From Proteromonas lacertae (Eukaryota), in contig NGBS01000888.1 of assembly GCA_002245135.1 (NCBI GenBank), positions 1 to 64,000 on the forward strand: DNA of 64,000 nt. Reading direction: 5' to 3'. The position numbers were made by a program, and so were the translations under genes. The notes under the pieces are model-generated. The model was not told the DNA's origin. It ran no database searches and saw nothing but the letters and a program-made list of their open reading frames with translations. Each line of letters opens with the position of its first letter. The stretch's first letter is position 1. Positions 3,001 through 50,582 of the stretch are shown here, in pieces.

Positions 3001-6000
3001 TATCATTACTTTGACTTATAAAACCAATTACACCATTCATATTCTCATTCTTTACTTCATTATCACTTTCACTCTTTATATTTAATACTTTTGGAATAAA
3101 CCATTCATCGGCTTTTATTATTATTAATCCATCTTCATTCTCATTCTCATTTGTTGTTGAACATTTTATATTTGAACTACACATATAATATAATCTAATT
3201 ATATCATTTGGTTTACTATTTAATATCAGATTTACATATCCATTATTATTCTCATAAAATGGATTTGCTAAATAAGAAACTACACTTATTGAGGGAATTG
3301 TTACATCATGAATTGAGATTATTGTGGGAATTATTTCTTGATTATTATAGATTTCATCATTACTCTTTAATTCATATCTTATTTCTTCACTATAATTACC
3401 TCGAGCTATTACATCTTCATATACACTTATTATCATTCGAATCTTATTATTGTAATTTATTGGATTAAATCGAATCTTTAAATCATTTTCATTTTCATTA
3501 TTCTCTATCTTACAATCGATTGAAGATGGACAATGAATATAAACATCTACTGAACTTGTTGGTCTTTCACTTAAATAGTAGAATATTTCTCCTTTTTCAC
3601 CTTCTTTTATATAATCAAATATTTTATTTTCTACTATTAATGTTGATATTAAATCATATATTTTCATTTCACTTAGATATAACACTATACTTTTAAACGT
3701 TGAATCACCATCAGTCTGATAACTTATATAATACAAATCTTTATTTCCATCACTTAATAATGATTTTGATGGATTAATCTTCACTTCAATTGTTTCATTC
3801 CAATTTGAATTATCAAATATTATTGTTGATTGGCTTGTACTTATTCGATTATCAGATACTTCTATTTTTATTGAATAAGCTGTTTCTGGTTTACAACCTA
3901 AAGAGATTCGAATTATTCCATCTAAAGTCTCATAAAATGGAACTGGGAAATAGTATTTTATATCCACTGAAGCTACATCGATATTATTTATCATTATTTC
4001 ATCATTTTCTAATACTATTGAGTTATATTTTACATCTATTGAACTGACTGTATAGCTTATTATCACTTTTGAATTACCATATTGAATATTATCATGAGTT
4101 GATTCATAATCTATTAAATATTGACTATTCCAACCATTTTCTAATATATCTATATTATTACTACTACTTATTAACTTAACATTCTTATTCTCATTTATCA
4201 TATTTATTGAGATTGTTACTGGATTTGTTGGTTTCGAAGTTAATTTGTATAAGATTGGACATTTCTCACCTTCATTTATCTCATTTTTACATTTTCTTTC
4301 TATTTCTATTCCACTTTTATCTATATTCTCTATTGTTAAATCAACATTTGGAATGGTTATTACTTTATAATCATTATCAACTGTATTGATGCTTTGTTTT
4401 ATCTCAATTATTTCATTCATTGTGTCTATATAATTATGATCAACTCTTAATTCGATTTTATGATTTATATTCCATTCATTACTTATTATTATTACGGAAC
4501 TTGCAATATTGATTGTATTGTATAAACAATTTTCGATTGATAGTCTGATTTCTACTGAAGATGAAGGTATTGTTGTTAATTTATAATTCAATTCACATTT
4601 TTCACCTTCTTTTATATTCCCATTACAGTTAGTTGTCATCACTATATTTGGAATATCATTATCTTTTATTGTTATTGAATGAGATGGAATACTCAATATT
4701 TCATAATCATTATCATCACTTCTTATTTCAAAATTTATCATATTTGATATATCGCCTGTTTTCTTATTATCTTCATTTGTACTTATTATTACTCTCTGTT
4801 TTATATTCCAATTATCATCATCAAATGATAATTTTTCTTCACTAAATATCAATGGTAAATCACTTACTCCATTATCACTAAAAATTATTTCTACATTCCA
4901 ATAGGGAATACTTGTTAAATAGAATGAATAACTACAATTATCACCTTCTATCAATGCATTAGTACAATCACTTTCATACATTATTTCAGCTTTATCAATA
5001 TCTTCAATACTTATATATAATGGATCAATATTTAGAGAATGATATCTTATATCATCACTTTCCATCTTTACTCTTATATTATATGGCATTATTCTATTTT
5101 CATTTACTCTTTTATCATGAATTAATGTCATATTTACTTTATATAAACTATTATAATTATTCATATTGAATATATGTTCATTATTACTACATAAGATTCT
5201 ATTCACATCACTACATTCGATTGTCAGTTTTACATCTTTATTTGGTTTTTCACTTAATACAAAACTATATTCTAATGTCTCATTCTCTTTTCCACTTCTA
5301 TCATAACTTGGCTTTATTAAATTCACATTTACATTATTCAATATTGAACTACAATAGATTTCTGGAGTTATTTCATAGGATATTAAACCACTTGTTTTAA
5401 ATGGAAGTAATATTGAATTGGGATATTTGAATTTCACTATATAACTTTGACTAACTCCAAAATTGATTATATTATATATTATCTCACTTTTACTTAATTC
5501 TATATAATCTTCACTCTTCATTTTTATTACTAAATCAGGATCAGCTGCATAATTTGTATTTATATCAACTTGGATTTCATCATTATTATTTAATGTTATT
5601 GCGGAGTTTATATTGCTTGTTATATATGGAATTGTTTGATATTCGATTGCATTTAAGACTATTCCATCATATACTGGATCAACTGTTGATAGTATTGATT
5701 TACTTATTATATTCTTATTTATTCCATTAGATGTACTTTCATAAGATAATCTTATATTATAAACATTGCTTAAACTAATTAATCGAACTTCTATGTAATG
5801 ATTTCCACTTTCTAAATTCACTTCAATTGATTCTTCAATAGAATTACTATTAAATATTCTTAATACATTATTCAAATCAATTAATAAAATACACCAACTA
5901 TTACATTGCAAATATAACTTATATAAACCACTAACAGAGATTTTTAAGGTAGAATAAACAGATACACCATAATTTGATATATCATTTAAACTTTTAGATA

Positions 6001-9000
6001 TTTCAAAATCACTTTCATAATATTCATTTATTCCTCTTTTTCTCCATTTTGAAACATCACTAAATCTTATATCATTCAAATTTCCTGAATATTTTATTTC
6101 ATTTATTGATTCATAATATTCAACTATTATACCTTTCTCATATCCATAAGATAAGGAGATTCTTTGAATTCCACTTACTCTGTCATCTTTCACTTTTAAT
6201 ATCGAACTAAAATCTGTTCCACCATTCGATACTTCAGATATCACATTGATTGTATTTGGAATTGTCATCTTTATATTATATTTATAATATGGCTTTGTTT
6301 TTGTTGTAAATCTTAAGCTATTTTCATCAGGATATCTCATCACAAAATTATTGGAATCATTGATTATATATTCTGCATTTGATAGATTGGAATTGACTCT
6401 TAAGGAATAATCTATTGGTTTTTCAATTATTACATTTTTATAAGGATTTTCATAGTATATTCCATTCAATATACAACTATTTGAGGATTTAGATAATTTC
6501 ATTTTATAGTTTTCATCATTTTCTATTATCATTTTTATTTCCATTTTATGAATTCCTATTTCCACATTTAAACTTATATCATTATCACAATTTCCATTAC
6601 ATCTAAATACTACTGTATTATCAACTAATATTTCACATTCATTCTCACTTATTAATCTCAATCTCATATTATCAATACAATCTGTATAAATATAACCACT
6701 CCATTTTATTCCTATTTTCTTTTCCACTAATAGATTTGGGATTAATTTATTATTATCATTCTTATCATAATCTATTATTATATTATTATTGGTGGATATA
6801 ACACTATTCTTATCTTTATAGACTTTATAATAATAATCATTACTTTCAAAATCAAATATATTACTTGGACTTAATCTCATCACATAATATTCAGCTAATA
6901 AACTGCCATATAATAATTCTGGAATATGATGAGTTATTCTCAAACTAGCTAAATTCAAAAATAATATATCTTCATCTTTCAATTCAAAACTCACTTTATG
7001 ACTTTGGGTGTTTTTATTTAATATAATCTTATTACTTGAACTTTTAAATACTTCTGGAACATCTAATTCCATTTCAACATCATTTTCTATATCATTCATA
7101 TTATAATTATAACTATATATCTTATTGTTACTCACATCCAATATATTGTTAGTATTATCACTTGAACCACTTATTATTATTTTATCATTATCAACTAATT
7201 GTAATGGAAGAATTAATCCACTATTATATTCAAAACTTGGATCTGTACATGATATGATATTCAACAAATTTACATAAGAAGTTCCAGTTGCATGACGATA
7301 TTTAATATCTATAAAACCTTCACTTCCTTTTTCATAGTTGTATAATATATCAATCTTATGATATCCTACACTCAAATAACCTGATGATATTTTAATTGTC
7401 ATTCCACTATTACTGTAACTTTCGATTGACATTAAACCATTCACATTTATTTCACAATTACTTCGACATTGCAATGAAAATACATAAACTTTTGCTATAT
7501 TTACTTTTATGAAGGTAATTATATGATATAATCTACCAGCTTCACTTAAACTAGAATCAGGATAATTCAAGTTAAAACTATCATAGAAATATTCATTTCT
7601 TTTCTCCCATCTTGGATCATCTAAATTTGGTTTACTTTCAAATCCAAATGGTGATGAATTAATTGTTCCATATTCTTCAACATATAATTTATTCTTACTT
7701 TTAACATCAATATACAAAAATGAATTGTTTAAACTATTCACTATTTTATCTTCAGCATAAGAAATAACAACATCATAATTATTAGTAGTTTTATCATACA
7801 CTAATTCATTATTACTACAGCTTAAGAATGGACCAGTTTGAAGTGATATAAATACTTTCAAATATATTTGGTCATTATTTATCAATGTTAACTTAATAGA
7901 TAATGAACTGCCTTCATTTACAGTATTGGATTTCATTGTTGCTTTAATTGAAGCTTTTGTAGTAGAAACATCAAGCATATTTTCAACAATTGGTTTTGGT
8001 TTATACAATAAAATACCTTCTTCTACATTATAGTTTACATTTGCACTGATAACCTGTTTGCCTTGTTATTCCACATATTCACTTTCTAATTCTAACTTTA
8101 CACATAAGTAGTTAAATACAGTATTATGCCATATATTTATCTGATGATATCCTTCTTCAATATATAGAACCAAGCACGTAACTGTATGCAATAGTCGTAG
8201 AATGATAACCGAACAGATTAGCTACCAATTCATTATCAATGAATAATGCCACAACTTTTAACACAAGTCAAATAGAATTGATAATAACCACTACAGGATG
8301 TATAATACATAGCCAGATACAAGTACTAGTATAAGCATAATAACTAATACTACTACTGGAAAGTCATACTACTTGTATCTATTGTATTAATACGATATTG
8401 ACCTAAAGAACCCCAAACTTGATGATGAAAGGTCAGGAATACCATGACATAATCAGAATAAATATTACCATTAAATCTATATGATCTTGTGTTAATTGCA
8501 ATTTACTAGTAGAAGTATGCTGCTATATATGGTATAACATATTCTTGTGGTGATATATATTGATGTATATCTTGTGTCTTTCTTATTGTTGTATAGCTAA
8601 ATACTGGAATACTAGATCCTTGTGCAGCATTAACAGTAATTTGACCAGGATTACATATAATTCCTTTAGTACACTTAAAATTATACTGAATATCACTCAT
8701 AATGTTTTTATTAAGTTGAAATTCTAAAGTATCAGTGATAGATCCAGAAATAGTAAAATCAGTAGCACTTGTTACCGCAATATCATAATCAACAACATGA
8801 TTCATAACAATTTCAATATTTGGATTTTTATTCAAATATATACTATCAATATGATAGAATAAGTTATTTTTATCAAATAAATCCAGAATATTTACATCTA
8901 CACATTTACCAGTAAGTGGGAAATGTAGTTTACTTATATTATAACTATATATTTCTAAATGATAATAGCCTTTATCAAAAGTTTTTATTTTCTCTTTGAC

Positions 9001-10282
9001 ACATGTAATACCTTCATAACAATACAATACTAATTCATTATCAATATAAACATAGAATCTATCATTATCACTTACATCATATTTCAATATATAATCAGCA
9101 TATCTTAAATTATAGAAATATGTATCAATATTTCCACCACATATAATACTAGACACACTGTTTACACTTGTTTCATCTATTCTTTTACCTTCAATTGTAT
9201 TACTATTAATTAAATTCCATCTACTTTTATCATTAAAATCAATCACTACTTGTGGTATAATTTTATTATTACTTAGCAATTGATAATAACTGAAAGTATA
9301 ACCTTTAGTATCAATAACTGGAACTAATTCTAATTTATATTTCTTATTAATATAATCTAATGGATCATTATAATATTTTAAATTAATATTTACATTACTA
9401 TACACAGTTGATGTAAATGAAATAGGTATAGAATCAGTAATACAATGAGGACCACAATAGATAGAATAATAAATAGTATAAATTGGAGCTTCAGTTAATG
9501 ATAATTGAAATGAATTACTACTACTTCCTGCATTATCTAAATCAACAATACTTTTTGATGTTATTATTTCACCATCTACGAGTTTTAATAATATTTCATT
9601 GTTTATATCTGATGTGATTGTATTATCATAGGATGGAACGGTTAAGTATTGATTTATTGCAACATACTCACTACTACCTGGAAATTGAACTAATACCATA
9701 TCTTTACCATTATTTGGATTTATTGCATCTAACTCAAAAGTATGTCGACTGCTGTCTAATAAGATAGATGCTGTTTTACTAACTGATGTATAATCGATTA
9801 CAATATTTCCATCTATTTTTAATCGAAGATAACTAGCTCCAGTCACTTGAAAACTATATTCTTGATTATTACCAACTTGACATCCTTCCATGTGAATTGC
9901 ATTTTGTAAATAATCATTGTTTTTATGCACTTTGAAGGAAGGAGAGACGATATCTTCTACTTCTATCCAATAAGAATTATCTGTAAATTCTGGGAATGAA
10001 CCATCGATCGTACCTTTGTGATAATAATATTTCCCAGCTACACCTCTGTTAGAATGCACTTTATAAGCTATCTTGTAGGTATTTGACACCAGAGAGCTTA
10101 ATGATATTGGGGCTCTTACTACAACATTCGCACCATCGTTCCAATTGGATGAAGTCAATTTAATCTCTGAACGTGAACATTCCAAATCAGTTGGACAATC
10201 TATTGATATAGAAACATAATCTGTTGGTGATTGACTTAATGTAAATTTAATATTCACATTTTTACCTATACTGAGATTTGTG
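1..10282. repeat. Left arm of >10 kb inverted duplication (partner 21174-31409)
   Basis: Position 1 pairs with 31409. The sequence is near-identical except at ~8020-8530 and ~8810-9580. The arm probably extends beyond the window start. Confidence 0.95.
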
Positions 10283-10401
10283 GGTGTATGTGAAACTAAT
10301 ACATTCGTTGAACCTATAGTATAAAAACCTATAAAAATAATACTAGTAAAACTGATAAGAATTAATATGATTAAAATTTTATTTAAAGAGTAATAAAACA
10401 T
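1..10401 (-). CDS. Giant polycystin-1/REJ-GPS-like surface receptor, copy 1 (runs off the window start; broken here by apparent indels)
   Basis: ORFs 8506-10401, 1700-8008 and 778-1737 are the reverse-complement match of 21201-31409. ATG at 10401 starts a hydrophobic signal peptide containing a 30-nt in-frame phase-1 GT-AG intron (10314-10343). Relative to copy 2 there are single extra bases in homopolymers at ~1710 and ~805, and an indel-rich stretch at ~8020-8530. Confidence 0.85.
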
Positions 10402-10592
10402 TTTCTGTTAAGAGAAAGAATAACTTTACTTTTCAGATTTGTATGTGTAGTAATATTTCTAATTGATTATCAAAGAATTTTAATTCAACTGTTATACAAA
10501 ATAAACTGTGTAATGTATGAATTTAAATTCATTTAAAGTATTTTTTCCCATCAAATAATCTGTACAAGTGAAAAAAGAAAATAAGTTATTAG

Positions 10593-11789
10593 TCAGTGAC
10601 GAATCGGTGATGATACTGATTCTACTTTGAAAATCTGCTGAACAGCGTCATGAACATTATTTACAACATACTTAGCAGGGTTCACAAGATCATTTCCCTC
10701 ACCATTGAAAATACCAGTTCTTACTAAAATTGAAGTCCAGTGTTTGCCAGCTTTGTTAGCTCCTTTTATATCTGAGTTAGGATTATCTCCAATACCATAA
10801 AAACGTTTTAACTATAATATAAAATGCAATTATACTGGAATTGGAGATAAATCATTTAACATCTTCTCTGCATAATTGTAAGTAGGTCTAGATGGTTTAC
10901 CATATGTTACTATTAATTTAAAATGAGTTATTAATACTAATATTTAAATCACTACCTGTTAATGATTTGAATATCTCTCTCAAACATCTTCCAAATGCTC
11001 CTCCAGCTAATCTGGGATATGCATAATTAGTACTAAACAATAAATCGTCATTAGATTGATAAATTGGTATTGCTTGACCAAATCCATGAGCTAATATATA
11101 ACAATAACAATATAAACTAATACTGCTAATCCTTCCTGCTGTTAATAAGTCTATACAAACTTGTAAGTCAGGATACCAATCATATGAATCAGAATAAATC
11201 ATTATTGCACTTATTGGTTCATTACAGTATTGACTATTTTTAGATTGATATGTTTTAAACGCATGTAAACGAGGGTGTTCTTGAATATATCCTGTTGTAT
11301 CAATAGATTTATAAAAACCATAGGATTTAGCAACATTTAGTGAATCTTTTGCTCCAATAATCTATATATACATATATAAATTATAAATTGTTTGTACTAA
11401 TATTCTACAATCTTTATATCTTTGTATTAGACTTTTATATGGTGTATGTGAGAGTAAAATTTGTGATTCATTTATAGGTACTCTTAGTTTTTCTGTTAAA
11501 TACTTTGCTTTTACTGATTCTGTCATACCACCTCCATTAGTAGCAAATATAAATGGAACTCTAAGAAATTAATCAAAAAAATACTTGAATTCATGTAACT
11601 GTTCAATAGTAGATGCAGCACCTGGAATTACATTTTCACCTTTCATCATCACTCCTATAGGAGTATAATTAAAATAAACATACCATCAATATCAAATATT
11701 ATTCCAAAATCCTTTCTTAATTCCCTAGATGTTATAGTTCTTTTGAAAGTCCTTATAGTTTGTTTTGTCAATCTAGCTAAACAAATCAT
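10593..11789 (-). CDS. HAD-superfamily class IIA hydrolase (HDHD5/CECR5-like), multi-exon, with possible mitochondrial/MRO presequence
   Basis: Spliced translation gives FGIIFDIDG-VMMKGENVIPGA, YGKP, GDNPNSDIKGANKAG..WTSILVRTG and PAKYVV. Several 24-36 nt GT-AG introns. Basic, acid-poor N-terminus MICLARLTKQTIRTFKRTITSR. TGA at 10593-10595. Confidence 0.85.
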
Positions 11790-11830
11790 TTCCCAAAAAC
11801 GAATGAAAAACTAGCGAGTAAATTGAAATT

Positions 11831-13029
11831 ATGAAAAGTGAAGTAGATAGTGAAGAAAATGAACTAAAAAAGAAAGCTGTATTTTTTAGTGCTTATTGTA
11901 CATAAAATAGAGGAGAGAGAAATTGCTTGATCCAAATAGATTAAAGATACTTTCAGAAAATATGTCAGATTTTCCTGAAGAGTTGAAACCAGAAGAAGAG
12001 GAATTGGTAAATGTTGATGAAAAGAATATTTCGAGAGTGAAAGAGTTATTTGAAACAGTAGCTCAGTCTCAAGATTTTCAGAAGAGAAACATATTATATT
12101 GGATAAGAAGAGTGAGTATAGTTGTTATTTTGTTTGGATTTTCATTAATGATATGTATTTTTTAAAATTATTATATAAATAGGTTTAAATCCACAAAATT
12201 TTTATTCTATTGATAAATTGTTTATTAAATTGTTGATGTTTTCATTTTTTTCATCCATATTATCAGTAGTTGTTTGTTCATCAGCATTTGGAATGAAATT
12301 TTCAATGTATGATATCTTTTCATATCTATTTTGAATTTATTTATTTCTTTAATATAAAGTTACATATGATAGGTACTAACTGGGTAGCTAAACTATTAAT
12401 ATCTCTATTAAATGTTCCACAATATATTGTTATAATAATTGACTTTGGCATTACATTCTACATTAGTTTATCAATCTTAGTATTTAGTTTGACTGCTATA
12501 ACAGCTTATCAAACATATATTCAAGATTATATCAATATATTCAATATAAGTGTAATTATCTCGATTGTTGTTGGAATTATTAGTTTTATTGTGATGATTA
12601 AGAGAAATAGAGATACAAGTAATAGAATTGAAGTAATTGTTGAATATTTATATTATGAATTATCACTCATTCCAGTTAGTGTAGAAGTAAAGTATAATTC
12701 ATATATATATATTAAAAAATTAATAGAAAAATGCTTAAAAAAGATAAAGATTCTGTAAATTGTAAAACAGATAAAAGAGCAGTTGAATATGAAGAGTTGC
12801 TAGAAAGAGTATGTAAATTGACAGAATATTTTGGAGATGATATAAAGCAATTCATTAAGAATAACAAGACAGCTATTTATAATAAATTAGAAAATGATGA
12901 AAGATTTAAAGTATTTGAAAAAGATGTAGAAAAGAAAGGTGAAGGTGAAAAAAAAGTAGGATCTTTTACAATGATGTATATATTTATCATATTTTATATA
13001 TTAGATGGGCTAAACCTGCAAAATTGTAG
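11831..13029 (+). CDS. Multi-pass membrane protein; C-terminus weakly resembles a MAN1/Src1-type winged-helix domain
   Basis: ORF pieces 11923, 12309 and 12731 are joined by GT-AG introns and one AT-AC intron (12312-12363). Several hydrophobic segments. Ends LENDERFKVF..GEG..MIWAKPAKL*. The family assignment is tentative. Confidence 0.6.
12312..12363 (+). other. U12-type (minor spliceosome) AT-AC intron, 52 nt
   Basis: 5' ATATCTTTT, branch-like TTCTTTAAT at 12345-12353, 3' AC. Removal joins ..FSMY-D-MIGTNW in frame. Confidence 0.85.
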
Positions 13030-13124
13030 AATATCATTAATTTTTATTATTATGGAATTTCATACTATGTTGTTTTTGTTATTCACTAATAATGAAAAGA
13101 AATAAATAAAATATATTTCTTATA

Positions 13125-13521
13125 TTAAAAAAATCCATTACTTCTACCATTACCATTGCCTGGATTGCCTGGTCCACTACCGTTTGATAAATCACTTAAT
13201 CCCATCACATTGCCTGTTGATCTATATCCTCTTGTATTACTGGTACTAGATGTACTTGCTTGATAAGTTTCATTACTTAACTTCCAATTTGTACGATTAA
13301 TAAAAAAGAAATAACCTATTGTTATTCCAAATATTAGAGCAACTGCTAATCTACCAATAAGTAATGCAGAAAGAGTAACGACAGTAATATAGGCGATTAT
13401 CTACAGTAAATGAATAAAATACTTTTGTTTTGGTTCCACAATTATGTGAACTAGCTGTATTGTTTATTTCATCTCTCAAGTCATGAAAATCCATATCATC
13501 AGTTTTGTTTTCGCTTGACAT
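13125..13521 (-). CDS. Small membrane protein with Gly/Asn/Ser-rich tail, function unknown
   Basis: ATG at 13521 and a 22-nt GT-AG intron (13401-13422) lead into a hydrophobic segment IIAYITVVTLSALLIGRLAVALIFGITIGYFFF, then ..GNVMGLSDLSNGSGPGNPG..GFF* (TAA 13125-13127). Confidence 0.65.
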
Positions 13522-13675
13522 AAAGAAGAAAAGAAAAAAAAGTAATTGACAAGTCAAAATTACTCACTTTTTTTGTTTTGTTATGAATAAGTTAAAACAA
13601 TAAAACTAATAAGAATGAAATGAAGAAGAATCATAAAAAGAAATAATAATAATAATAAAGCTAATTAAAGAATGT

Positions 13676-16600
13676 TTAAATTCTTACACCAGCATCTTTT
13701 GAAGCATCAACCATTTGTTCAGCTGTTTTTCGAACATGTTTTGTTCTTCCACCTACTCTGACGTAAATACAATAACCTCCTAAGAATACAACTCCTCCCA
13801 ATATTATACAACCAATTATTATTCCAACTAAAGCACCTGTTGTACTTCCTGAACATTCATCAATTGGACTTTCCCAGATTGCATTCCCATCTACATAAAT
13901 ACATCTTCTCATTATAAAACCAGATCGACCTCCTCCACATTTTATTACTGCTTGATCACCTACTAGAGTTTCTGGAAAACCATCATTAGCTGGACATTTC
14001 TTTGCTTTAAACTCTAATTTGATTGTTACACTTGCTGATTTTCCATTTGAATCTGTTACTGTTATTACATAATCTTGTTTTGAAACATCAACCACTGAAA
14101 GTCCTTGTAAATATCCAGAAGCAGATATTACAAAACCATCAGGTAATGGTGGATTTATTGATACTGATAAACCATCTCCAACTGCATCAAATAATTGAAT
14201 TGATACCATTGTTCCTGTTGCTACTTCTATATCTTTCTTTACTGTTGAATCAGGAATTACTGGTGTTTCACTTTTTACTACTACTATTAACATTTTAATC
14301 TGAATTGAGTTTTTACCATTAGATACATTGATTGTATAAGTTGTATTTTGAGTATCTACTTTGCCATAACCATTAAATGTTCCTGTTTTAGAATCCATTG
14401 TTATTCCACTTGGTAATGTGGGAGTAATTGAATAAACTAAATTTGATCCACTCACTGTAAAGAATCTCTCATTAAATAATTCTTGCCCTGTTGTTAAGAT
14501 TACAGATTCATTTTGACTAATTACAACTGGAATATCATCACCTTGAATTACTGATACTAAAATATCTTTTGAAACTGTTTGACTTTTACCTGTACAAGAG
14601 AATTTGTAGCTAACTGCTGATTGAGCTGAAGCGGTTACTTTTCCTTTCATTGCACCTGTTGTTGCATTGTAAGTTAAACTGGCTGGTAAATTCTTATCAA
14701 TGCTATAAGTTAAGGGATTTGAATAACATAATATTGGATATTGATTATCATAATCCATCATATAGACTAAATCTAATTTATCTACAGATTCAACCATCAC
14801 TGGTTCATTAGGTATTGTGATTAAAAAGGAAATTTGTCTTGATGTCGATTGACCAGCTGTATTAGAAATTGTAAACATACTGGAGGACATACCTGGTCTT
14901 GTTGCTTTTCCTTTAATAAAACCAGTTGAAGAATCCAATTCTATACCGAATGGTAGCTGATTTACACTATAACTCACAGGTGATGCACTTTCTACCCAAA
15001 ATATTTGTTTATGTTGTTCATCTATTTCTTCATAAACATTAGCCACTACTGCAGGCATATATTTCCATATAATAATATTGTTAGTTGCTTTAATGATTAG
15101 TGTCATTGTTATTTTACCTGAACCATATTGGTTTGTAGCAGTAAATGTGATTGAATAAGTAGCTCCTTTATATGGAGTTCCATTTATTAAACCAGTGGTT
15201 GTATTATATTTTAATCCTGGAATAAACTCACCTGGTTCACAACTTGGACATGAAAAACTATAAAATGTTGGATTTCCTGTGACTTCATATATTGATTCAT
15301 CTACATAAGTCACACCAGCATCAAAAGTAAATGTCAATTCTGTATTTATGAATTTAGGAACTTCTCCACAAGTAGAATTTACTTCAATCCATAAAGCAAA
15401 GTTTGAACAATAGAAATATCTTTCACCTACAGCGCCTTCTTGACTACAATTAGCTTTATAGAATGTATTCGATATTCCTTCAGGTAATTTTTCGGTTGGA
15501 TTAGCTACACATTTCTTAGTTCGACATAAATGATATCCAATTTCTCTCACTTCCATTCCTTTATTAACATAATCATATTGGTTTGACTTGGGTATATCAA
15601 TTCTTACACTTTTATATAATGTATAAGGATCTACGTTGAAGGTTGCTCTTCCTGGTGTATATTTCTTTGTTTCAAAGTAATAAACTGGATCTAATGAACC
15701 AATCGACACTGTCGATGTGTCTGTTTTACCTGTTAATGACACTTTCATTGGATAATGAGTTTGTTGACCAGTACCAGCTCTCATTGTGAATTGATTAAAG
15801 GTATAATGACTATTACTACCAAATGTATAATCAGCATAGGAATAGCCATCTACAGTTCCATAATAATCATCCCATGATGATTCAACTGATAAATCAAATG
15901 CTGCATGAGCAAAAGATGATTCATATTTACCAAAACTTTTACTAGATGAATCACTTACACTTCCACCATAAAGTGTAACTAAAATACAATCTTCATCATT
16001 ATCTCCATCTAATGGGAATATAAAAAATCTATCCTCATTTGGGAAATTATCATCCGTTGGACTTTTATGAATTTCATAAGTTATTATTGCTGTATCATTT
16101 AAATCATCGATTGGTAATATGAAATTCTCTTCTCTCGCTCTTTCATAAGCAGTATCTCCTGGAGTATTTGGACCTATATCTCCACTTGGTAAATTATCTC
16201 TGAATATTACTCTTCCATTTACTCTGACTATTACACCAGATCTATGTTTAATTCGAAGGAAATAACCTGAATATTTGTCATAATTTGGGAATGATAATGG
16301 ATATCTCAAATAATATGTTGGCATAGTAAGTGGAGGTTGAGCCAATGTTGTTATTGGTGATGTTGGCCATGTTAAAGTGAAGTTTTTAAATTCCCAATTT
16401 GGAACATATTGTCGATTATATTGCCATTGTGTTCGAGTATCCATCAAATATGTAACTATAGAAATTATAAAACAATTAATATATACAATCAGTTGTTATA
16501 TTTACTTCACCATTATCAGTATAAGACACAGTATATCTACCAATTATGGAATTACCTGCATAGATTGTCATATTGGAATTTCCCCAACCACTTCCACTTA

Positions 16601-19600
16601 TATCAATCAATCTCAATGTATACCATCCTTTTGTTATACACATCTTTATACTGTTTATTGAGTTTTCAGTAAATGTATTATCTACTCTTTCAAATACAAC
16701 TTCATCTTTTGAATTGATTAATTGATAAGCAGGTCTATCATATTCTTTTCCTACAGCTAAGGTTAATCCAATCAAGAATTTTCCTGCATTTTCACAATCA
16801 TCTTCTTGAGTATCAGGAATTATATGTATTATCATTTCTACACTCTTTCGACCTTTATCATTTATAGCTGTGATTGTGTATGTTGTTGCATTGGTAATAA
16901 AACGAGCTGTTCCATATATTCTTCCTGTTATATTGTTGAATCTAATACCTCTTGGTAATGCTGAAGGAGTAATAGTGAAATAATCAACAAATGTTTCTAT
17001 TGTTGGAATTAATAGGATTTGATTACCTTGATAATAGGTTGCATTATTGGTAATATATTTAAAATTAGGTTCAACAGGATCTATTCAATTACATATAATT
17101 AAATAATATATACCTGTGTTAAGTACAACTGTATGAGAATCAGTAACAGGAAAATCACCAGTATATCGATAGATTCTTACACCATCATTATAAACAGTAA
17201 ATACATAATCAAACATTCCACTTATATATATTGTATAGGTATCTACTGGAAGACACATACTGTAAGTTCGAGGTAAACTAACTGTGGTAGTTTCATATAC
17301 ATACATCACTCTTGTACCATTTGATGCTGTTACTCTTAACACTAAATATTGACCATTATCAACAAAATCATTACTGAAATGGAAGGAATGTCTTTTTCCA
17401 CTTTCACATCCACCTTCAGCTTTTATTCCAAATTCAAATTGTTTATTATCACCATCAGAAGGAAGAACAACTGCAGTTACTGTCACTTTTGTATCTAATT
17501 TTTCTCTCGGACTTCCTGAAAGAGTTGATGATTTCCAATCATATGTAAAACCAACTGGAATATTCTCAGCTCTAAATTCAATTACATAACCAGATTTCAC
17601 ATGGAATTGAAGATCATAAAATTCACCCACAACTAAGGATATTGAATCAGTATATTCTTTTCCAGTTTGAAGATCTATTACATAAAAATCTGCTGGTGAT
17701 TGAACAGCTATTTAAGATAATAAAAATAAATGAATTATACTTTTCACAGATATATAGATAGTAGTTGAAATAGATTTATCAAGTGTACTTGTAACTTTGA
17801 TTTTATGAGCTGTCATTTCAACATAACTACTCACATCTGGAACACCAGTTATAACTACAGGCATACGATCACTTCCTGAACAAATTTCTCTCAAACCATT
17901 TGGCAATGGTGGATCAATAACTATACTCTTACATCCAAACTTTTCAACTGCAATAACCTGATTTTTTACTGTTTGACCATTAAGATATGTCGCTGTACTT
18001 TGAGTCATTAGGAAATAATCATTTACTGGAACATAATGGAAATACATATTTGTCTCCCTATATTCATCTTCATCAGCAGTATTTAGCTTACTTAAAAGTT
18101 TAAATGTAGCATGACCATTGTGTGAAACATAATAAATCTGAACCAAATAATCATCATCAGTCATATTAAAATCAAAGAATCCTTCATCTTCAATTGTATT
18201 TCTTCCTGGCTTAGCTAATACTTCTTTATGATTAAAATAAACCCAATAACCACCATCTGCAATAACTTTAAAATTATAAAGACCTACAATAACAAATGTA
18301 GGATATAAATAACCTTCCCAATAAACACCATAATCATCAAGAAATTCTATACTCAATCCATCAGGATGTGGCTGTTCTTGAGATTCTACAATAGATGGTC
18401 TGTCTTGTCTTTGGATGTATAATGGATCAATACCATCAACTTCTGGACCATATTTTGTATATAAACTAGTATCGAAATTATAAGGTTTGTAATAATAAGC
18501 TCTTACTCCATTAACTACAGTATCTGTAACACGAAGTTTCAAGGCTATTTCATTTGTTTCACTGTCTTGATTTTTACATTTGATTTTAACTTCTGTATAA
18601 TCCATCATAGATTGTGGATGACCTGTTATACCACTCACTGTTACTTCTGATCCCTCTGGTAATTCAACATTATTACTTATCCAACAACTTTCAGCTTTAC
18701 CTTTTGATACATGTATTGGAGTTAAACTAAAGGCATCTAATTTCCAACTAACTTCGGCAACATCAGCAGATAGAAACATTACTGGATTAAAATTTGAATA
18801 ATCTATTCAGATAATAAACAATATATATATATACAATATTTAAATGGAATGGTTTTTCTTATACTACTTCCTGCAGTGGAATAATCTAATACAAATTTGA
18901 AATCTAATCCTTCACCTCCCATAAAATCTACTATCACTCTTCTATAACCACTTTCTAATTTCACTGTTTTCTTCATTGGATCATCATTCCATGGTTTACA
19001 TTCACTCCAATCAGATAATACTTCAACATCATCAATAAACACTCTAGCATTCATTTCATTACCAGTTTGCATATAAAAGGTATAATCACCAGCTGTTTCA
19101 ATATTGATAAATCCATCCATTGTACCATTAAATGTTGTTATTATACCCCAAGGTGATACTTGCATTTTTTGAATCCAACTTTCATAATTGGTTAAGTTAT
19201 CTAAATTATTCATTGGAGCTTCAAATGGAAATTCATATGTAGGGATACCATCATAATAATTACCACATTTCGTTGTCTCCAAATCATAAAATGTTACAAA
19301 TATACCATCTTTTAATTCAGGATTCTCTACTTTAACAATATCAATGTCAAAACTTCCAGTTCCAGCATCATTTCTAGCTTCAATAGTAATTTTCATGTTA
19401 GTTTGAGGATTGAAATTTCGAAATGTCAAATAGGGACCATCTTGAGAAACACCTCGGATTTCTTTGGGTGTCATTGACCAACTATCATCGGAAGCATCAC
19501 CTGTTGAAGTACAAGTAATAACTGTATTAATAAGAGAGACTGTTGTTAGTTTTGATACACCACAATTTACAACAGGAGCAGACATACCTAGTCAAATTAT

Positions 19601-19951
19601 ATATATAATTGATAAATATACAGACTATCATCAATATGCACGATGCTTGATCATCTTGACCTGCATTATAAACGATTGTATGACTTGTCCAAGATTGAAC
19701 TGTTGGAGTTCCGGAGATATATCCTGTCTTTGAATCAAGTGATAAACCATCTGGTAAGTCTGGTGAAACAGTGTATGATCCTTCTTTTGAAGGGTTTGGT
19801 TTATTTTCGGTAATAACACTTCCTACCACATAAAATGGATGCATATCTTCATAATCGAATGTCAAAGCACAAGAACAACTTGCCATGCATAGTACTATTA
19901 AATAATAATAATAATAATCATACACACAACTGTTAATGCTAAGAATCTCAT
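13676..19951 (-). CDS. Type I single-pass surface protein (~2,027 aa): signal peptide, putative-Ig (He_PIG-like) repeats, PA14-like domains, Cys-rich HRM-like modules, TM, short tail ending GVRI
   Basis: Seven exons. Introns 19895-19923, 19588-19621, 18803-18834, 17708-17740, 17081-17113 and 16456-16486 join the listed ORFs in frame (6,084 nt). Repeated LP.G...D..TG.I.G.P motifs, PA14-like G.Y.F...DG..V..D motifs, C-terminal CPANDGFPET..C..RRC..W..C, and TM GALVGIIIGCIILGGVVFLGGYCIY. Confidence 0.85.
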
Positions 19952-20199
19952 CTTAGATTTTTTTTTAATGACGCGTTTTGATTTAATTTTAACCAATCAA
20001 AAGCGATAATTTTAAATTACAAACTATTAAACACAAGCTACACGTTCCAATTCTATGCAAACTATATCTCATAAACTATACAAGTAGATTAACCGGATAA
20101 TTTGAGCTATTTTAAATATCATAAATGCTATAATTTGAAACAATTAGACTTTCAATCAACTAACACTACATTAACTAGCATAAATCCATCAAGACACCA

Positions 20200-20990
20200 A
20201 AATATCATAACATAAACCAGGAAGAACTGATTTTTAACAAGATCATTTTTCAAAAAAAGTAATATATAAGCATCAGGACTTCTCCTAAAAACTAATTTAT
20301 TTTTTTATAATCTACTGATAACATGTTATTCATATTGTACTTCACAAATCTCTCTAATTTACCTAATCTTTCATTTTAAGTACAGCAACAAATTAACACC
20401 AAAATATACCTCACAGTCATTCGTTTAGAAGGTCAATTTTGTAGTGGCGTAAAAATTTATTTCCAAATACACCTTCTTATTCTTTTTCTTTAATATATTA
20501 AATTAAAATACTTGATGAATAACTCTGCCAGAGAGTTGTCTTCAACATAATACTTCATATCCTTTAATATCCTTGTATCAGGCATTCTTGCAATTATTTT
20601 AGACTAATATAAACTTATTATCGTTTTTAAAGCAATATAAAATATCATGAATACTCCCTGAACTAATGATCTCAAAACTCTGATCAGCAATAATACAAGC
20701 ACAAATGAAATAATAATAATAATAATTCCTATTTTGAGTTATAATGCATATATATAAGCGACTATTATAACATTCAATGATCTGATTGAGTAGTTAAATT
20801 ACAAAATAAACTTAATTTTAGTTTCTTTGTACTAAACTATTGAATATAATAGCAACAGCTAGTCCAGAACTCATCAATCTATGATATTCTGATATAGCTA
20901 AAATAAATACAATAATGAATTGATATACATTAACCAAACATATCAATAAGTCCTACTAGTAATTTTATTTCAAATAAATATGATAAATTA
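20200..20990 (-). pseudogene. Possible decayed gene remnant
   Basis: GT-AG intron-like segments and short coding-like stretches (e.g. KIIARMPDTRILKDMKYYVEDNSLAELFI) are interrupted by stops. No family recognised. Confidence 0.25.
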
Positions 20991-21058
20991 AAATGATTGT
21001 GTAATTATGTAAATTACAGTCAAAAATCAAGTTATAACTGATTAAATTCATTTGATTT

Positions 21059-24000
21059 ATGTTCTTTAATTCAATTCAAATTTTACTCACTCTCAGCATT
21101 TTACTTAAGGTTGCATGTATAAATAGTATTATATCATATTTTAGTTTCAAACAATGTTAATACGTTAGTTTCGCCAACAAACCTCAGTATAGGTAAAAAT
21201 GTGAATATTAAATTTACATTAAGTCAATCACCAACAGATTATGTTTCTATATCAATAGATTGTCCAACTGATTTGGAATGTTCACGTTCAGAGATTAAAT
21301 TGACTTCATCCAATTGGAACGATGGTGCGAATGTTGTAGTAAGAGCCCCAATATCATTAAGCTCTCTGGTGTCAAATACCTACAAGATAGCTTATAAAGT
21401 GCATTCTAACAGAGGTGTAGCTGGGAAATATTATTATCACAAAGGTACAATCGATGCTTCATTCCCAGAATTTACAGATAATTCTTATTGGATAGAAGTA
21501 GAAGATATCGTCTCTCCTTCCTTCAAAGTGCATAAAAACAATGATTATTTACAAAATGCAATTCACATGGAAGGATGTCAAGTTGGTAATAATCAAGAAT
21601 ATAGTTTTCAAGTGACTGGAGCTAGTTATCTTCGATTAAAAATAGATGGAAATATTGTAATCGATTATACATCAGTTAGTAAAACAGCGTCTATCTTATT
21701 AGACAGCAGTCGACATACTTTTGAGTTAGATGCAATAAATCCAAATAATGGTAAAGATATGGTATTAGTTCAATTTCCAGGTAGTAGTGAGTATGTTGCA
21801 ATAAATCAATACTTAACAGTTCCATCCTATGATAATACAATCACATCAGATATAAACAATGAAATATTATTAAAACTAGTAAAAGGTGAGATATATACTG
21901 ACATTAATCCTACTCTCAGCGCCTCAGGTTCAACTACCGTTAAACTTTCATTAAGTGAACCTCCCAGTTATGATTTTACATTTGCAGTTTATTGTGGTCC
22001 TCATTGTATGACTGATATTAATCCATATACATTAACTACAAGTGATTATAAAGATAAAAGTATTATTTTACATTATAAAGAGAACAGCGATTATGTTAAT
22101 AAACATTATAAATTAGAATTAGTTCCAATCATTAGCACAAGAGGTACATTATTTACAATATATCAATTAATAACTGGTAAAACAGTCACAATGGTAAAAC
22201 CTGATTTTACTGATACTACAAAATGGACAACTTATATAAGTGTAGTAAAAGATGATAAGCCAATAAATGAAGTTAAACTCAATGGTGGAATAGCTAATAC
22301 AATGTATGGTTCAGATGTAAATACATACTTCTATAATAGCAGAGATGGATATTATACAATAAAATATGATGTTAATGATAATGATAGATTCTTTCTATAC
22401 ATTGATAACGAATTGATATTGTATTGTTATGAAGGTAGAACATGCGTTAAAGAGATTATTAGATATTTTGAAGTTGGTTATTTCAATCTACATATCGTTA
22501 GTTATAATGTAACAGAATTAACATTCCCACTTACTGGTAAATGTGTTGATGATATAAATGTTGATATATTCTTATATACTCACAGTTTTCGTAATATTGA
22601 TAGTACTTATTATAATCAACAACCAAATGCTAAAGTTACAATGAATCATGTTGTTGATTACGATATTGCGGTAACAAGTGCTACTGATTTCACTATTTCA
22701 TCAACAATTACTGATACAGTTCAATTTCAACTTAATAAAAACATTATGAGTGATATTCAGTATAATTTTAAGTGTACTAAAGGAATTATATGTAATCCTG
22801 GTCAAATTACTGTTAATGCTGCACAAGGATCTAGTATTCCAGTATTTAGCTATACAACAATAAGAAAGACACAAGATATACATCAATATATATCACCACA
22901 AGAATATGTTATACCTACAATCACTACTTCCACAAAATTGCAATTAACACAAACTATATTCTATTTTAAGAATGGTATGGCTGATTATGTTGGTATTCCT
23001 CCATTAGCAACAAGTGTTTGGGCAGTAAAGAAAACTTCTTTGATTGATAGAATAGATTATGTTGGTGTTGAGTATTATGTAGATAATGCTTATACAATAC
23101 TTGTATCTGGTATGTATTATGCTTCTTGCAGTGGTAATTATAAATTCTATTTAACTTGTTATAAAGGATGTGCATTATTTGTTGATAATGAGTTAAAAAT
23201 CAATATGTTTTTTAATCAACCTATTGCATTACAATTTACTACTTGGGTTTATATTGAAGAAGGATATCATCAAATTAATGTATGGCATAATACTTATTTA
23301 ACTACTTATGGTGTAAAGTTAGAATTAGAAAGTGAAATATGTGGAATAACAAGGCAAACATACAGTGCAAATATAAACTATAATATTAAGGAAGGTATAT
23401 TGTTATATAAACCAAAACCAATTGTTGAAAATATGCTTGATGTTTCTACTACAAAAGCTTCAATTAAAGCAACAATGAAATCCAATACTGTAAATGAAGG
23501 CAGTTCATTATCTATTAAGTTAACATTGATAAATAATGACCAAATATATTTGAAAGTATTTATATCACTTCAAACTGGTCCATTCTTAAGCTGTAGTAAT
23601 AATGAATTAGTGTATGATAAAACTACTAATAATTATGATGTTGTTATTTCTTATGCTGAAGATAAAATAGTGAATAGTTTAAACAATTCATTTTTGTATA
23701 TTGATGTTAAAAGTAAGAATAAATTATATGTTGAAGAATATGGAACAATTAATTCATCACCATTTGGATTTGAAAGTAAACCAAATTTAGATGATCCAAG
23801 ATGGGAGAAAAGAAATGAATATTTCTATGATAGTTTTAACTTGAATTATCCTGATTCTAGTTTAAGTGAAGCTGGTAGATTATATCATATAATTACCTTC
23901 ATAAAAGTAAATATAGCAAAAGTTTATGTATTTTCATTGCAATGTCGAAGTAATTGTGAAATAAATGTGAATGGTTTAATGTCAATCGAAAGTTACAGTA

Positions 24001-27000
24001 ATAGTGGAATGACAATTAAAATATCATCAGGTTATTTGAGTGTAGGATATCATAAGATTGATATATTATACAACTATGAAAAAGGAAGTGAAGGTTTTAT
24101 AGATATTAAATATCGTCATGCAACTGGAACTTCTTATGTAAATTTGTTGAATATCATATCATGTACAGATCCAAGTTTTGAATATAATAGTGGATTAATT
24201 CTTCCATTACAATTAGTTGATAATGATAAAATAATAATAAGTGGTTCAAGTGATAATACTAACAATATATTGGATGTGAGTAACAATAAGATATATAGTT
24301 ATAATTATAATATGAATGATATAGAAAATGATGTTGAAATGGAATTAGATGTTCCAGAAGTATTTAAAAGTTCAAGTAATAAGATTATATTAAATAAAAA
24401 CACCCAAAGTCATAAAGTGAGTTTTGAATTGAAAGATGAAGATATATTATTTTTGAATTTAGCTAGTTTGAGAATAACTCATCATATTCCAGAATTATTA
24501 TATGGCAGTTTATTAGCTGAATATTATGTGATGAGATTAAGTCCAAGTAATATATTTGATTTTGAAAGTAATGATTATTATTATAAAGTCTATAAAGATA
24601 AGAATAGTGTTATATCCACCAATAATAATATAATAATAGATTATGATAAGAATGATAATAATAAATTAATCCCAAATCTATTAGTGGAAAAGAAAATAGG
24701 AATAAAATGGAGTGGTTATATTTATACAGATTGTATTGATAATATGAGATTGAGATTAATAAGTGAGAATGAATGTGAAATATTAGTTGATAATACAGTA
24801 GTATTTAGATGTAATGGAAATTGTGATAATGATATAAGTTTAAATGTGGAAATAGGAATTCATAAAATGGAAATAAAAATGATAATAGAAAATGATGAAA
24901 ACTATAAAATGAAATTATCTAAATCCTCAAATAGTTGTATATTGAATGGAATATACTATGAAAATCCTTATAAAAATGTAATAATTGAAAAACCAATAGA
25001 TTATTCCTTAAAAGTTCAATTCCAATCTATCAAATGCAGAATATATAATCAATGATTCCAATAATTTTGTGATGAGATATCCTGATGAAAATAGCTTAAG
25101 ATTTACAACAAAAACAAAGCCATATTATAAATATAATATAAAGATGACAATTCCAAATACAATCAATGTGATATCTGAAGTATCGAATGGTGGAACAGAT
25201 TTTAGTTCGATATTAAAAGTGAAAGATGACAGAGTAAGTGGAATTCAAAGAATCTCCTTATCTTATGGATATGAGAAAGGTATAATAGTTGAATATTATG
25301 AATCAATAAATGAAATAAAATATTCAGGAAATTTGAATGATATAAGATTTAGTGATGTTTCAAAATGGAGAAAAAGAGGAATAAATGAATATTATGAAAG
25401 TGATTTTGAAATATCTAAAAGTTTAAATGATATATCAAATTATGGTGTATCTGTTTATTCTACCTTAAAAATCTCTGTTAGTGGTTTATATAAGTTATAT
25501 TTACAATGTAATAGTTGGTGTATTTTATTAATTGATTTGAATAATGTATTAAGAATATTTAATAGTAATTCTATTGAAGAATCAATTGAAGTGAATTTAG
25601 AAAGTGGAAATCATTACATAGAAGTTCGATTAATTAGTTTAAGCAATGTTTATAATATAAGATTATCTTATGAAAGTACATCTAATGGAATAAATAAGAA
25701 TATAATAAGTAAATCAATACTATCAACAGTTGATCCAGTATATGATGGAATAGTCTTAAATGCAATCGAATATCAAACAATTCCATATATAACAAGCAAT
25801 ATAAACTCCGCAATAACATTAAATAATAATGATGAAATCCAAGTTGATATAAATACAAATTATGCAGCTGATCCTGATTTAGTAATAAAAATGAAGAGTG
25901 AAGATTATATAGAATTAAGTAAAAGTGAGATAATATATAATATAATCAATTTTGGAGTTAGTCAAAGTTATATAGTGAAATTCAAATATCCCAATTCAAT
26001 ATTACTTCCATTTAAAACAAGTGGTTTAATATCCTATGAAATAACTCCAGAAATCTATTGCAGTTCAATATTGAATAATGTAAATGTGAATTTAATAAAG
26101 CCAAGTTATGATAGAAGTGGAAAAGAGAATGAGACATTAGAATATAGTTTTGTATTAAGTGAAAAACCAAATAAAGATGTAAAACTGACAATCGAATGTA
26201 GTGATGTGAATAGAATCTTATGTAGTAATAATGAACATATATTCAATATGAATAATTATAATAGTTTATATAAAGTAAATATGACATTAATTCATGATAA
26301 AAGAGTAAATGAAAATAGAATAATGCCATATAATATAAGAGTAAAGATGGAAAGTGATGATATAAGATATCATTCTCTAAATATTGATCCATTATATATA
26401 AGTATTGAAGATATTGATAAAGCTGAAATAATGTATGAAAGTGATTGTACTAATGCATTGATAGAAGGTGATAATTGTAGTTATTCATTCTATTTAACAA
26501 GTATTCCCTATTGGAATGTAGAAATAATTTTTAGTGATAATGGAGTAAGTGATTTACCATTGATATTTAGTGAAGAAAAATTATCATTTGATGATGATAA
26601 TTGGAATATAAAACAGAGAGTAATAATAAGTACAAATGAAGATAATAAGAAAACAGGCGATATATCAAATATGATAAATTTTGAAATAAGAAGTGATGAT
26701 AATGATTATGAAATATTGAGTATTCCATCTCATTCAATAACAATAAAAGATAATGATATTCCAAATATAGTGATGACAACTAACTGTAATGGGAATATAA
26801 AAGAAGGTGAAAAATGTGAATTGAATTATAAATTAACAACAATACCTTCATCTTCAGTAGAAATCAGACTATCAATCGAAAATTGTTTATACAATACAAT
26901 CAATATTGCAAGTTCCGTAATAATAATAAGTAATGAATGGAATATAAATCATAAAATCGAATTAAGAGTTGATCATAATTATATAGACACAATGAATGAA

Positions 27001-33000: not shown

Positions 33001-34368
33001 AAAAGTGGAATAGATGAATCAAGTATAAGTGTATTTTTCTCTCAATTGAAAAGTCAACATACTTGGATTGGTCCAATAATTGCTCCAAATGAGAATATAA
33101 TCTTAGTAAGTCGAGCTGAAAGATGTGTTTGCATATTTGCGATATTATTAACAGATATAGCTGTATTAGCAATGTTTCATGGTACAAGAACTGAATCTGT
33201 GACATTAATATTTACAACTGGAATAATCTCCGCTTTAATATCATTGCCTGCTTCAGTATTAATTCCTCATTGTTTCATGTTTGCTAATAAATTTTCTTCA
33301 GCAACAATAAAAGATTTTAATATCTTCAAAAGATTTGCAAAAGTAAAGAAATCAATAGATAATTCTTTGTTATTTAAACATGAAAGTGATGATGCAAATG
33401 AATCAAAGAAGTTGAGAATAAGATTCCATATAATGATTTCCACCTTTATTTTGTCATTTATCTATATAGTTTCTGTAATAATAGGATTTTTCACATTTGG
33501 GATAGACGGACTTGGATTTATGTTGTTTATAATAAATATAATCTATACAATCCATTCAATCTGTGGAGTAAAATTAGGTTCATCTGATTTCCTTCGATCT
33601 TTCAAGATATTCCTATGTTGTACAGTGTTATTATTAATAATGGAAATAGTATTTATTGGAATGTTATTTAGTTTTACCTCTGAAAGTAGTGGTGAAAATA
33701 TGTGGATATTTGGATATAAAGTATTAAAACCAGTAATCAAAGATATAGAAAGTTATGGTGAATGTTGTGGTTATTCTTCAATCTATAGATATGCAGTTCA
33801 TGATTGTATGAATCCCAATTTATTAGCAACTGGTTATAATCCAATAAACTGTATGAATACAGTAAGTAAATTATTGAAAGAATATTCTCCTTTATTATTT
33901 ATTTGGTTTATTAGTTCGATAGTAATAAATACCTATTTAGTAATATTATGTATAAAATTCTTAAGATTACCAGTTTATGTAGTAAAAGAAGATAAATTGA
34001 CAGTAAAAAAAGTGACAGAAGAACAAAGACATGCTGCTCATAAGATTCAAGGATGTTTATTGAAAGTAGTAGCAAAAAAGAATGCAATAAGAAGAGAAGA
34101 ATATAAGAAATGGTATAGACAAAGAAAAGATAGAAAAGCCTTGACAATGTTAGTATATACATTTACAATCGTTTATTGTATATTTATGATGTATTTGAAT
34201 TTATTATATGGAATTAAGTTTGGTAAAAGTCAATCAGTTGGATGGATAATAGCTTGTGTTGTAACGATATTAATCGATGTATTTATTCAACAACCAATAT
34301 TTATATTATGTAAATCAGTTGCTGGAACAACAATAATTCGAATAATAAGCATGGCAACTCATGTTTAA
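21059..34368 (+). CDS. Giant polycystin-1-like receptor, copy 2 (~4,426 aa if one frameshift is corrected): signal peptide, PA14-like domains, Calx-beta/cadherin-like repeats, REJ-like region, EGF, 2x TSP1, GPS, PKD1-type TM segments, tetraspanin-like module, IQ motif
   Basis: ATG 21059 and a 28-nt phase-1 intron (21117-21144) lead in frame into ORF 21201. A +1 base at ~25015 relative to copy 1 separates ORFs 21201-25055 and 25069-34368. Motifs: NGGWSEWSEWSLC twice (TSP1), CVYFD..CMSLHLTEF (GPS), SRAERC, YGIKFGKSQSVGW, GECCGY, AAHKIQ. Confidence 0.88.
21174..31409. repeat. Right arm of >10 kb inverted duplication
   Basis: Reverse complement of 1-10282. Identical shadow ORFs appear in both arms (e.g. 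4633-4845 and 26567-26779). Confidence 0.95.

Positions 34369-47685: not shown

Positions 47686-50582
<2,897 letters not shown>

Follow-up and report, generated by a model that had tools for sequence, protein, structure and literature searches.

How two head-to-head copies of one giant gene can be nearly identical over most of their length and deeply different in two internal segments is the question raised by a stretch of the Proteromonas lacertae genome (GenBank assembly GCA_002245135.1, contig NGBS01000888.1, positions 1 to 64,000 of the forward strand), which is referred to here as the window and comprises 64,000 nucleotides (nt). The gene encodes a predicted surface receptor, and its two copies, A on the left and B on the right, flank a unique centre. 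A preliminary description of this locus had suggested a shufflon-like system, or gene conversion with diversifying selection, in which crossovers re-pair variable cassettes on a common stalk. The locus is probably shaped by conversion, a mechanism already known, and not by a shufflon. We consider it probable that the two copies go back to an old inverted duplication and have been held similar by ordinary gene conversion, which the leaders and PA14-like modules 2 and 3 escaped.

By self-BLAST, the inverted arms (1-10284 and 21174-31409) share 95.8% identity over 10,306 columns, at a spacing of 10.9 kb. Global alignment and codon alignment, read from the 5' ends of the genes, resolved this average into discrete blocks (Table 1), and the block pattern is far beyond chance. 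The leaders of the two arms are hardly alignable, and in the 415 bases located 5' of the common block the likeness between the arms is not above that of shuffled sequences (112 of 200 shuffles score equally high). The first common block, s1, is 99.4% identical, with 4 differing codons among 231, three of which are silent. It is followed by the variable segment V1 (66.8% nucleotide identity over aligned codons, 144 identical amino acids out of 281, and no frameshift), by s2, in which the arms are identical over ~190 bp, by a second variable segment, V2, and finally by a stalk that differs in 9 of 8,005 columns (6 substitutions and 3 single-base indels; 99.9% identity) and reaches the window edge. 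The inverted pair with alternating near-identical and diverged blocks, the different leaders and the near identity over at least 8 kb were thus correctly recognized in the preliminary description, with coordinates right to within about 90 bases. Its sharp block boundaries were confirmed in part, because not all of the 3' edges are abrupt: V1 ends via a ~65-nt patch with two changes (8810-8746), and V2 ends via scattered changes that extend as far as 8006. Likewise, preservation of the open reading frame (ORF) in the diverged segments holds for V1 but not for left V2, which contains 14 frameshifts in 566 nt. The frames are also broken by three single-base indels in the stalk, near 25015 in the right arm and at 1713 and 807 in the left arm; the frame of copy A is therefore broken in V2 and at the latter two positions. 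All three of these stalk frameshifts (25012-25015, 1713, and 807) are +1 insertions.

The V1 pair shows a synonymous divergence (dS) of 0.61 and a nonsynonymous divergence (dN) of 0.36, giving a dN/dS of 0.59 (95% bootstrap interval, 0.42-0.81), a pairwise average in which single selected sites can hide. When calculated by part, the ratio is 0.48 for the PA14 part and 0.82 for the Ig part, the latter with an interval spanning 1. Diversifying selection across V1, as previously suggested, was rejected on this basis for the comparison of the two copies. Synonymous identity is not clustered inside V1 (Sawyer-type P 0.73 and 0.50), and V1 therefore looks uniformly old; mosaic tracts inside V1 were rejected on the same values. 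These data show an old divergence under purifying constraint in V1, and it follows that the near-identical blocks represent the derived state. The few differences in s1, s2, and the stalk, set against the dS of V1 and with silent sites included, constitute the pattern of concerted evolution, and derived near-identity of this type points to non-allelic gene conversion, of which it is the usual signature (excerpts of PMC7042247 and PMC10919680). Gene conversion, which was already part of the earlier interpretation, fits the block pattern.

Both copies start with a hydrophobic first exon, which is followed at the same place by a putative GT-AG phase-1 intron of 28 or 30 nt; a second possible intron is also present in the right arm. 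The encoded order is six Ig/PA14-like modules, an Ig-like stalk, a REJ domain (PF02010, E 7.5e-36), EGF and TSP1 domains (also detected by Pfam), a GPS-like motif, and approximately 8 membrane helices. The GPS-like motif, His-Leu-Thr, lies 35 amino acids (aa) before helix 1 and resembles the GPS consensus; it has no Pfam GPS match and is kept in a relative from Cantina marsupialis (see below). A cysteine-bearing loop without Pfam match is located between helices at 33400-34000, in the region where the Cantina protein P0154 carries a tetraspanin-like stretch among its membrane segments (residues 3880-4054; PF00335, E 1.3e-10). Self-BLAST of the receptor protein at E 0.01 revealed no internal repeats, and profiles were needed to define the modules. 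In the module alignment, every PA14 domain sits within an Ig-like domain; V1 corresponds to all of module 2, s2 to the Ig core of module 3, and V2 to the PA14 insert of module 3, while PA14 domains 1, 4, 5, and 6 are homogenized between the arms. Equating V1 and V2 with PA14-like domains was therefore appropriate as regards the PA14-like core present in each, but V1 is a whole Ig plus PA14 module, and four of the six PA14-like domains are homogenized rather than variable.

Using a profile derived from the PA14 hits, five PA14-like domains were detected at an independent E-value (iE) of 2e-3 or better, together with a weak sixth in V1 (iE 0.08, then 0.011); the best iE among reversed controls of the first PA14 profile was 2.8. 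The V2 domain scored a Pfam E of 4e-4, below the cut-off, an iE of 7.5e-12 with the profile derived here, and a Foldseek E of 1e-6, and the second structure match of V1 was Cea1A (E 9e-4). The low-confidence models of V1 and V2 (mean predicted local distance difference test scores of 55 and 52, respectively) match Cea1A, Epa1A, and Lg-Flo1 in the case of V1 and the PA14 dyads of RsgI in the case of V2; the alignments used for modelling were seeded with PA14 sequences, so that this fold support is not independent. ESM Atlas returned one lead for V1, a Calx-beta cluster whose score of 0.78 is too low to be reliable. Calcium-dependent PA14 lectins carry a DcisD motif (excerpts of PMC6218569 and PMC6852018). 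At the aligned position, Asp-Asp is found in none of the six modules, V1 having Asn-Asp in both arms and V2 lacking an acidic residue. In one clostridial PA14 domain, loss of the motif was accompanied by loss of calcium and pectin binding (excerpt of PMC6852018). Because of this precedent and the lack of Asp-Asp in all modules, carbohydrate binding is an unproven, fold-level lead only; the earlier assignment to a carbohydrate-binding family agrees with the fold and not with the calcium motif.

The condition of left V2 may be informative as to how the locus varies. A frameshift-aware alignment with the right-arm protein identified 10 insertions and 4 deletions in the 566 nt of left V2, compared with none in 894 nt of V1, and the placement of all 14 frameshifts in V2 has a probability of 1.7e-6 under uniform decay. 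At 8311, 8327, 8119, and 8250, inspection by eye found the letter of copy B beside another letter, at three of these sites in the third codon position. Consensus sequences were simulated by a simplified partial-order alignment procedure on mixtures of the clean V1 pair, which served as a stand-in, and frameshifts were counted in a protein-aware manner, since compensating gaps raise DNA-level counts artificially (to 37 even for the clean V1 pair). The simulated consensus contained 0-3 frameshifts in all 36 runs with 0-30% of the second variant, 1-8 at 40%, 5-14 at 45%, and 12-18 at 50% (12 runs each), mostly insertions. The identity of left V2 to V2-B (0.85) is within the range of simulated blends at 45-50% (0.78-0.91). 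As the 14 observed frameshifts need a mixture of 45-50% in the simulation, left V2 likely combines two populations of reads in nearly equal amounts. When the mis-assignment of reads is modelled geometrically, 1-32% foreign right-arm reads are predicted, about equally at V1 and V2; V1 is nevertheless clean, which speaks for a second V2 that is really present on the left arm. Such a variant may be a heterozygous conversion tract in a diploid, the sign of a mixed culture, or a third copy collapsed onto this one. Diploidy has been reported in Blastocystis (excerpt of PMC12129017), and polishers are known to mix haplotypes (excerpt of PMC8092372). On balance, the scramble seems somewhat better explained by a real second variant, an artefact of read assignment being quite possible and decay improbable. 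A real exchange of V2 would be one-way conversion and not reciprocal inversion, because right V2 is clean.

The history of the locus under conversion would then be as follows. The duplication would be old, since the position of the intron is common to both copies and divergence is deep in the leaders, in V1 (dS about 0.6), and in V2. Repair-driven, non-reciprocal conversion from arm to arm would have removed differences from tracts that vary in age (99.9% identity in the stalk, 99.4% in s1, and 100% in s2). V1 and V2 would stay distinct either because selection keeps two ligand specificities or because a divergence of 30% simply blocks any further conversion, and both receptors would be displayed by the cell at once. 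Left V2 would be a polishing blend of the A version and, likely, the B version, with a real second haplotype that combines V1-A with V2-B, in a heterozygous or segregating conversion tract, somewhat preferred to mis-assigned reads.

Several points weigh against this history. Two copies in one assembly cannot show the direction or the rate of conversion, and neutral escape of V1 and V2 fits as well as selection against conversion. The simulation is simplified, uses V1 as a stand-in, and differs from the real assembly pipeline; a mixture of 40% is enough to scramble the consensus at depth 10, which counts against a real second V2. The mis-assignment model does not extend to a collapsed draft polished with short reads. 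The greater likeness of left V2 to B could simply reflect a lower divergence of V2, and a third V2 variant would be indistinguishable from B. The +1 insertion at 25015 consists of two letters side by side beside an arm difference and resembles the left V2 blend; it suggests that stalk reads of both arms mix, which would favour an artefact in V2 as well. The host lineage is likewise inferred, as the search with Sec61 returned no named Blastocystis protein among the 120 listed of 1,334 matches.

Other explanations of the locus accommodate parts of these data. In an active exchange of cassettes, segmental conversion would swap PA14 modules between the copies or from extra donors, at a frequency that maintains several V1/V2 combinations within a culture, to yield ligand-range or antigenic variation. 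The near-identical blocks that flank each variable segment could seed the repair, V2 begins and ends where the PA14 insert of module 3 does, left V2 resembles a near 50:50 blend, and inverted duplicates feed gene conversion in avian Ig loci (excerpt of 10.64898/2026.09.05.749481). We nevertheless regard such exchange as unlikely, given that there are just two V1 versions, both of which are clean, with dN/dS below 1 and no mosaic tracts. Self-BLAST found no third copy of the receptor arm within the window, and extra variants were not found in the searched collections, which may lack this receptor and make this a weak point. The proposal that this protist swaps PA14 modules between its two receptor genes by segmental conversion, with half of the left-arm molecules being V1-A/V2-B and encoding a third receptor type absent from both reference copies, is doubtful. 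Reciprocal inversion is permitted by the geometry: homologous crossovers in the common blocks of the inverted arms (696 bp, s1; 190 bp, s2) would turn the 10.9-kb centre round and bring leader, V1, and V2 into new combinations, and with a stalk of 8 kb the entire centre could plausibly be inverted silently. However, if crossovers in s2 were common, both V2 copies should be blended (scrambling occurred in all 12 mixtures simulated at 50%), yet right V2 is clean, and a crossover in the stalk, which is much the largest target, leaves both proteins unchanged. The re-pairing of V2 by inversion that had been envisaged is accordingly improbable. A programmed shufflon, in which the receptor tip is altered by a specialized site-specific recombinase that acts on short sites and inverts the segments between them, is similar in outcome only, as variable ligand-binding parts are carried on a constant stalk. 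Pfam matches to recombinase, integrase, or transposase families were absent from 109 window ORFs, although short exons could be missed; the two scans (22 and 87 ORFs) covered all 35 centre ORFs of at least 55 aa and 70 of the 74 right-flank ORFs of at least 70 aa, leaving out four mirror copies in a second repeat and starting from start codons in twelve cases. The five block boundaries have no common short site (longest shared word, 9 nt; mean over 10 pairs, 7.4; null mean, 7.3; null 95th percentile, 10), and both arms are full genes with leader, intron, and stalk rather than silent partial ORFs or cassettes, in a eukaryotic host with introns. The shufflon-like system was thus rejected and is the least probable explanation considered.

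Errors of assembly and decay of the left copy would account for the pattern in other ways. If the arms were misjoined haplotypes or unlinked paralogs, or if the identity of the stalk resulted from polishing with the same reads, the pair would be an artefact; indel errors do remain in the assembly (a frameshift in alpha-tubulin near 49770 and the three single-base stalk indels), and the mixing of haplotypes mentioned above is documented. The arms, however, differ in leader, V1, and six stalk substitutions, the leaders join different sequences of the unique centre, and alleles would share upstream sequence, for which the arms show no such likeness. An artefact of this kind is therefore rather improbable. 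A decaying left copy, or a decayed V2 received from a pseudogene donor, would be in line with the out-of-frame left V2 and the two further frameshifts in the left stalk, but V1-A has no frameshift and a dN/dS of 0.6, the clustering in V2 departs from uniform decay (P as above), and a blend of reads reproduces the insertion-rich pattern. Pseudogene decay was rejected and is very improbable. Returning to gene conversion as the preferred reading, conversion over 9 kb that spares two of six PA14-like modules would, if this reading holds, point at the parts most likely to set ligand choice. The left V2 blend, if biological, would be a domain swap caught while segregating; if it is mis-polishing only, the locus would be a pair in concerted evolution of the usual kind, and a reminder of how easily blended sequences pass for pseudogenes.

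Table 1. Coordinates of the receptor gene pair, its blocks, and the genes between the arms (limits of s1 and s2 are approximate).
Feature	Position (strand)	Description
Copy A (left)	1-10401 (-)	Cut by the window edge; leader exon at 10401-10344 and inferred 30-nt intron at 10343-10314
Copy B (right)	21059-34368 (+)	Giant receptor-like gene; about 4,400 aa, assuming that one +1 frameshift near 25015 is an assembly error, as is likely; leader exon 21059-21116, inferred 28-nt intron 21117-21144
s1	21183-21878 (+), partner 9583-10276	Module 1, an Ig-like domain with a PA14-like insert; homogenized
V1-A	8724-9582 (-)	Open frame clean; 51% aa identity to V1-B; dN/dS about 0.6
V1-B	21879-22722 (+)	Module 2: Ig-like part 21879-22139, PA14-like part ~22140-22548, plus linker
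s2	22724-22915 (+), partner 8531-8722	Ig-like core of module 3
V2-left	8006-8530 (-)	Homologous PA14-like insert with 14 frameshifts; likely consensus of two read populations
V2-B	22916-23405 (+)	PA14-like insert of module 3, frame clean; edges are domain edges in the module alignment
Homogenized stalk	23406-31409 (+), partner 1-8005	Modules 4-6, seven or more clear Ig-like repeats, REJ (~29960-31050), EGF, start of TSP1
C-terminal part	31327-34368 (+)	TSP1 repeats, GPS-like motif (His-Leu-Thr at 32740), 8 hydrophobic segments (32845-34302)
Unique centre	10285-21173	10.9 kb, without recombinase match
HAD-family hydrolase	~10600-11780 (-)	In the unique centre
Small ORFs	12300-13520	Without Pfam match
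Multi-exon membrane-protein gene	~13676-19950 (-)	Two PA14-like domains and Ig repeats of the He_PIG type; flanked by the receptor genes

The multi-exon gene in the unique centre encodes a third PA14 surface protein of the cluster. A second inverted duplicate is present at 54380-56913 and 57838-60371, with 3 differences in 2,534 nt (99.9% identity), a 924-nt spacer containing a kinase fragment, and a WD40-like ORF of 304 aa in each arm; inverted duplication is therefore ordinary in this window. Paralogs encoding a kinase with leucine-rich repeats are located at 37965-41110, 60424-63679 (70% for this pair), and 53654-54157, in opposite orientations and 70-92% alike, indicating a local expansion. 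The beta- and alpha-tubulin genes are arranged back to back (47686-50582), and the frameshift that splits the latter is likely an uncorrected sequencing error. A 33-nt match of 97% identity, which may be of low complexity, connects the stalk sites 28513-28545 and 2867-2899 with 36456-36488 near a Rab3-GAP gene. The window also contains genes for Sec61, a kinesin, and kinases, ranges from 21 to 37% GC per kb, and has introns near 30 nt in length. The sequence TGTTTGTT, a 3' motif of Blastocystis, occurs just 5 times in the window and is of no help in placing the host. GC contents of 21-27% have been reported for the genomes of Blastocystis and Proteromonas kin (excerpt of PMC12129017). The gene content, low GC, and short introns of the window and the Cantina relative described below point to a likely host, presumably a gut protist, among low-GC opalozoan stramenopiles such as the kin of Blastocystis or Proteromonas. 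Relatives of Sec61 at 99% and 90% identity were found in Logan records (P0028 and P0031 clusters, one member being on 22 contigs), indicating that public runs of this organism or of close kin exist.

A search of 50%-representative proteins for further V1/V2 variants yielded 13 weak matches, 9 of the PA14 type and 4 of the Ig-repeat type, none of them close. In a separate set of 13 matches, the Cantina marsupialis protein EP01029_P006583/4 (P0154 and P0002) is the only relative over most of the C-terminal half. It is also the closest full-length relative, with 24% identity over 1,658 columns that include the Ig-like stalk, REJ, EGF, TSP1, and the GPS-like motif, whereas towards the N terminus it is rich in cysteine and gives no Pfam match to PA14. 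The receptor type, with a PA14 tip, REJ, a GPS-like motif, and a multi-helix tail, is thus shared in part with Cantina. When V1-s2-V2 was used as a query against shorter proteins, none of 3,412 candidates passed, and in two metagenome scans of the Joint Genome Institute, which gave 98 and 19 pattern matches, none was confirmed; these collections may lack this receptor. By exact look-up, one of eight window proteins, beta-tubulin, was present in the searched collection. Descriptions of the receptor architecture or of the locus were not found in the open literature on PA14 and gene conversion in Blastocystis or on REJ and GPS in stramenopiles, and the main text of PMC12129017 makes no mention of PA14 or REJ.

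In its REJ region the receptor is comparable with the polycystin-1 family. The PKD channel region of polycystin-1 has 11 helices. The window receptor has about 8 and shows no match to PF01477 (PLAT) or PF08016 (PKD channel), both of which are carried by the Hydra polycystin-like matches. REJ and, to judge from the GPS-like motif, possibly a GPS site before the first membrane helix are common to this receptor and the polycystin-1/REJ receptors, including Ectocarpus Esi0130_0068 (excerpt of PMC4700764). Sea-urchin REJ1 also has lectin-type domains at its tip, although the tips of the window receptor are PA14-like rather than of the C-type lectin type. The fold matches of the V1 and V2 models relate them to PA14 lectins, namely the Epa/Flo/Cea1 adhesins and clostridial RsgI sensors (excerpts of PMC6218569 and PMC6852018), which differ in their Asp-Asp at DcisD. 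The IncI shufflon, which uses the Rci recombinase and 19-bp inverted repeats, likewise places alternative ligand-binding tips on a constant body (pilV), and its mixed structures within one culture corrupt assemblies (excerpt of PMC5430464). Here, two complete intron-bearing genes are found instead, with no recombinase, 19-bp sites, or silent partial ORFs.

PfRh2a and PfRh2b likewise form a head-to-head pair that is identical over about 8 kb, with the unique part at the C terminus. In Plasmodium falciparum DBLMSP and DBLMSP2, which are also neighbouring surface paralogs, non-allelic conversion moves the ligand-binding domain and results in deep dimorphism; there, only the binding domain is common and the rest has diverged, which is the mirror image of this locus (excerpt of PMC10919680). 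Bovine CEACAM32 provides a case of paralogs under conversion that spares exons for protein domains, a pattern attributed to selection against conversion (excerpt of PMC7042247). In that case conversion affects the leader and introns but not the Ig exons, whereas at the present locus it covers most of the mature protein and leaves only the leader and two PA14-like modules untouched.

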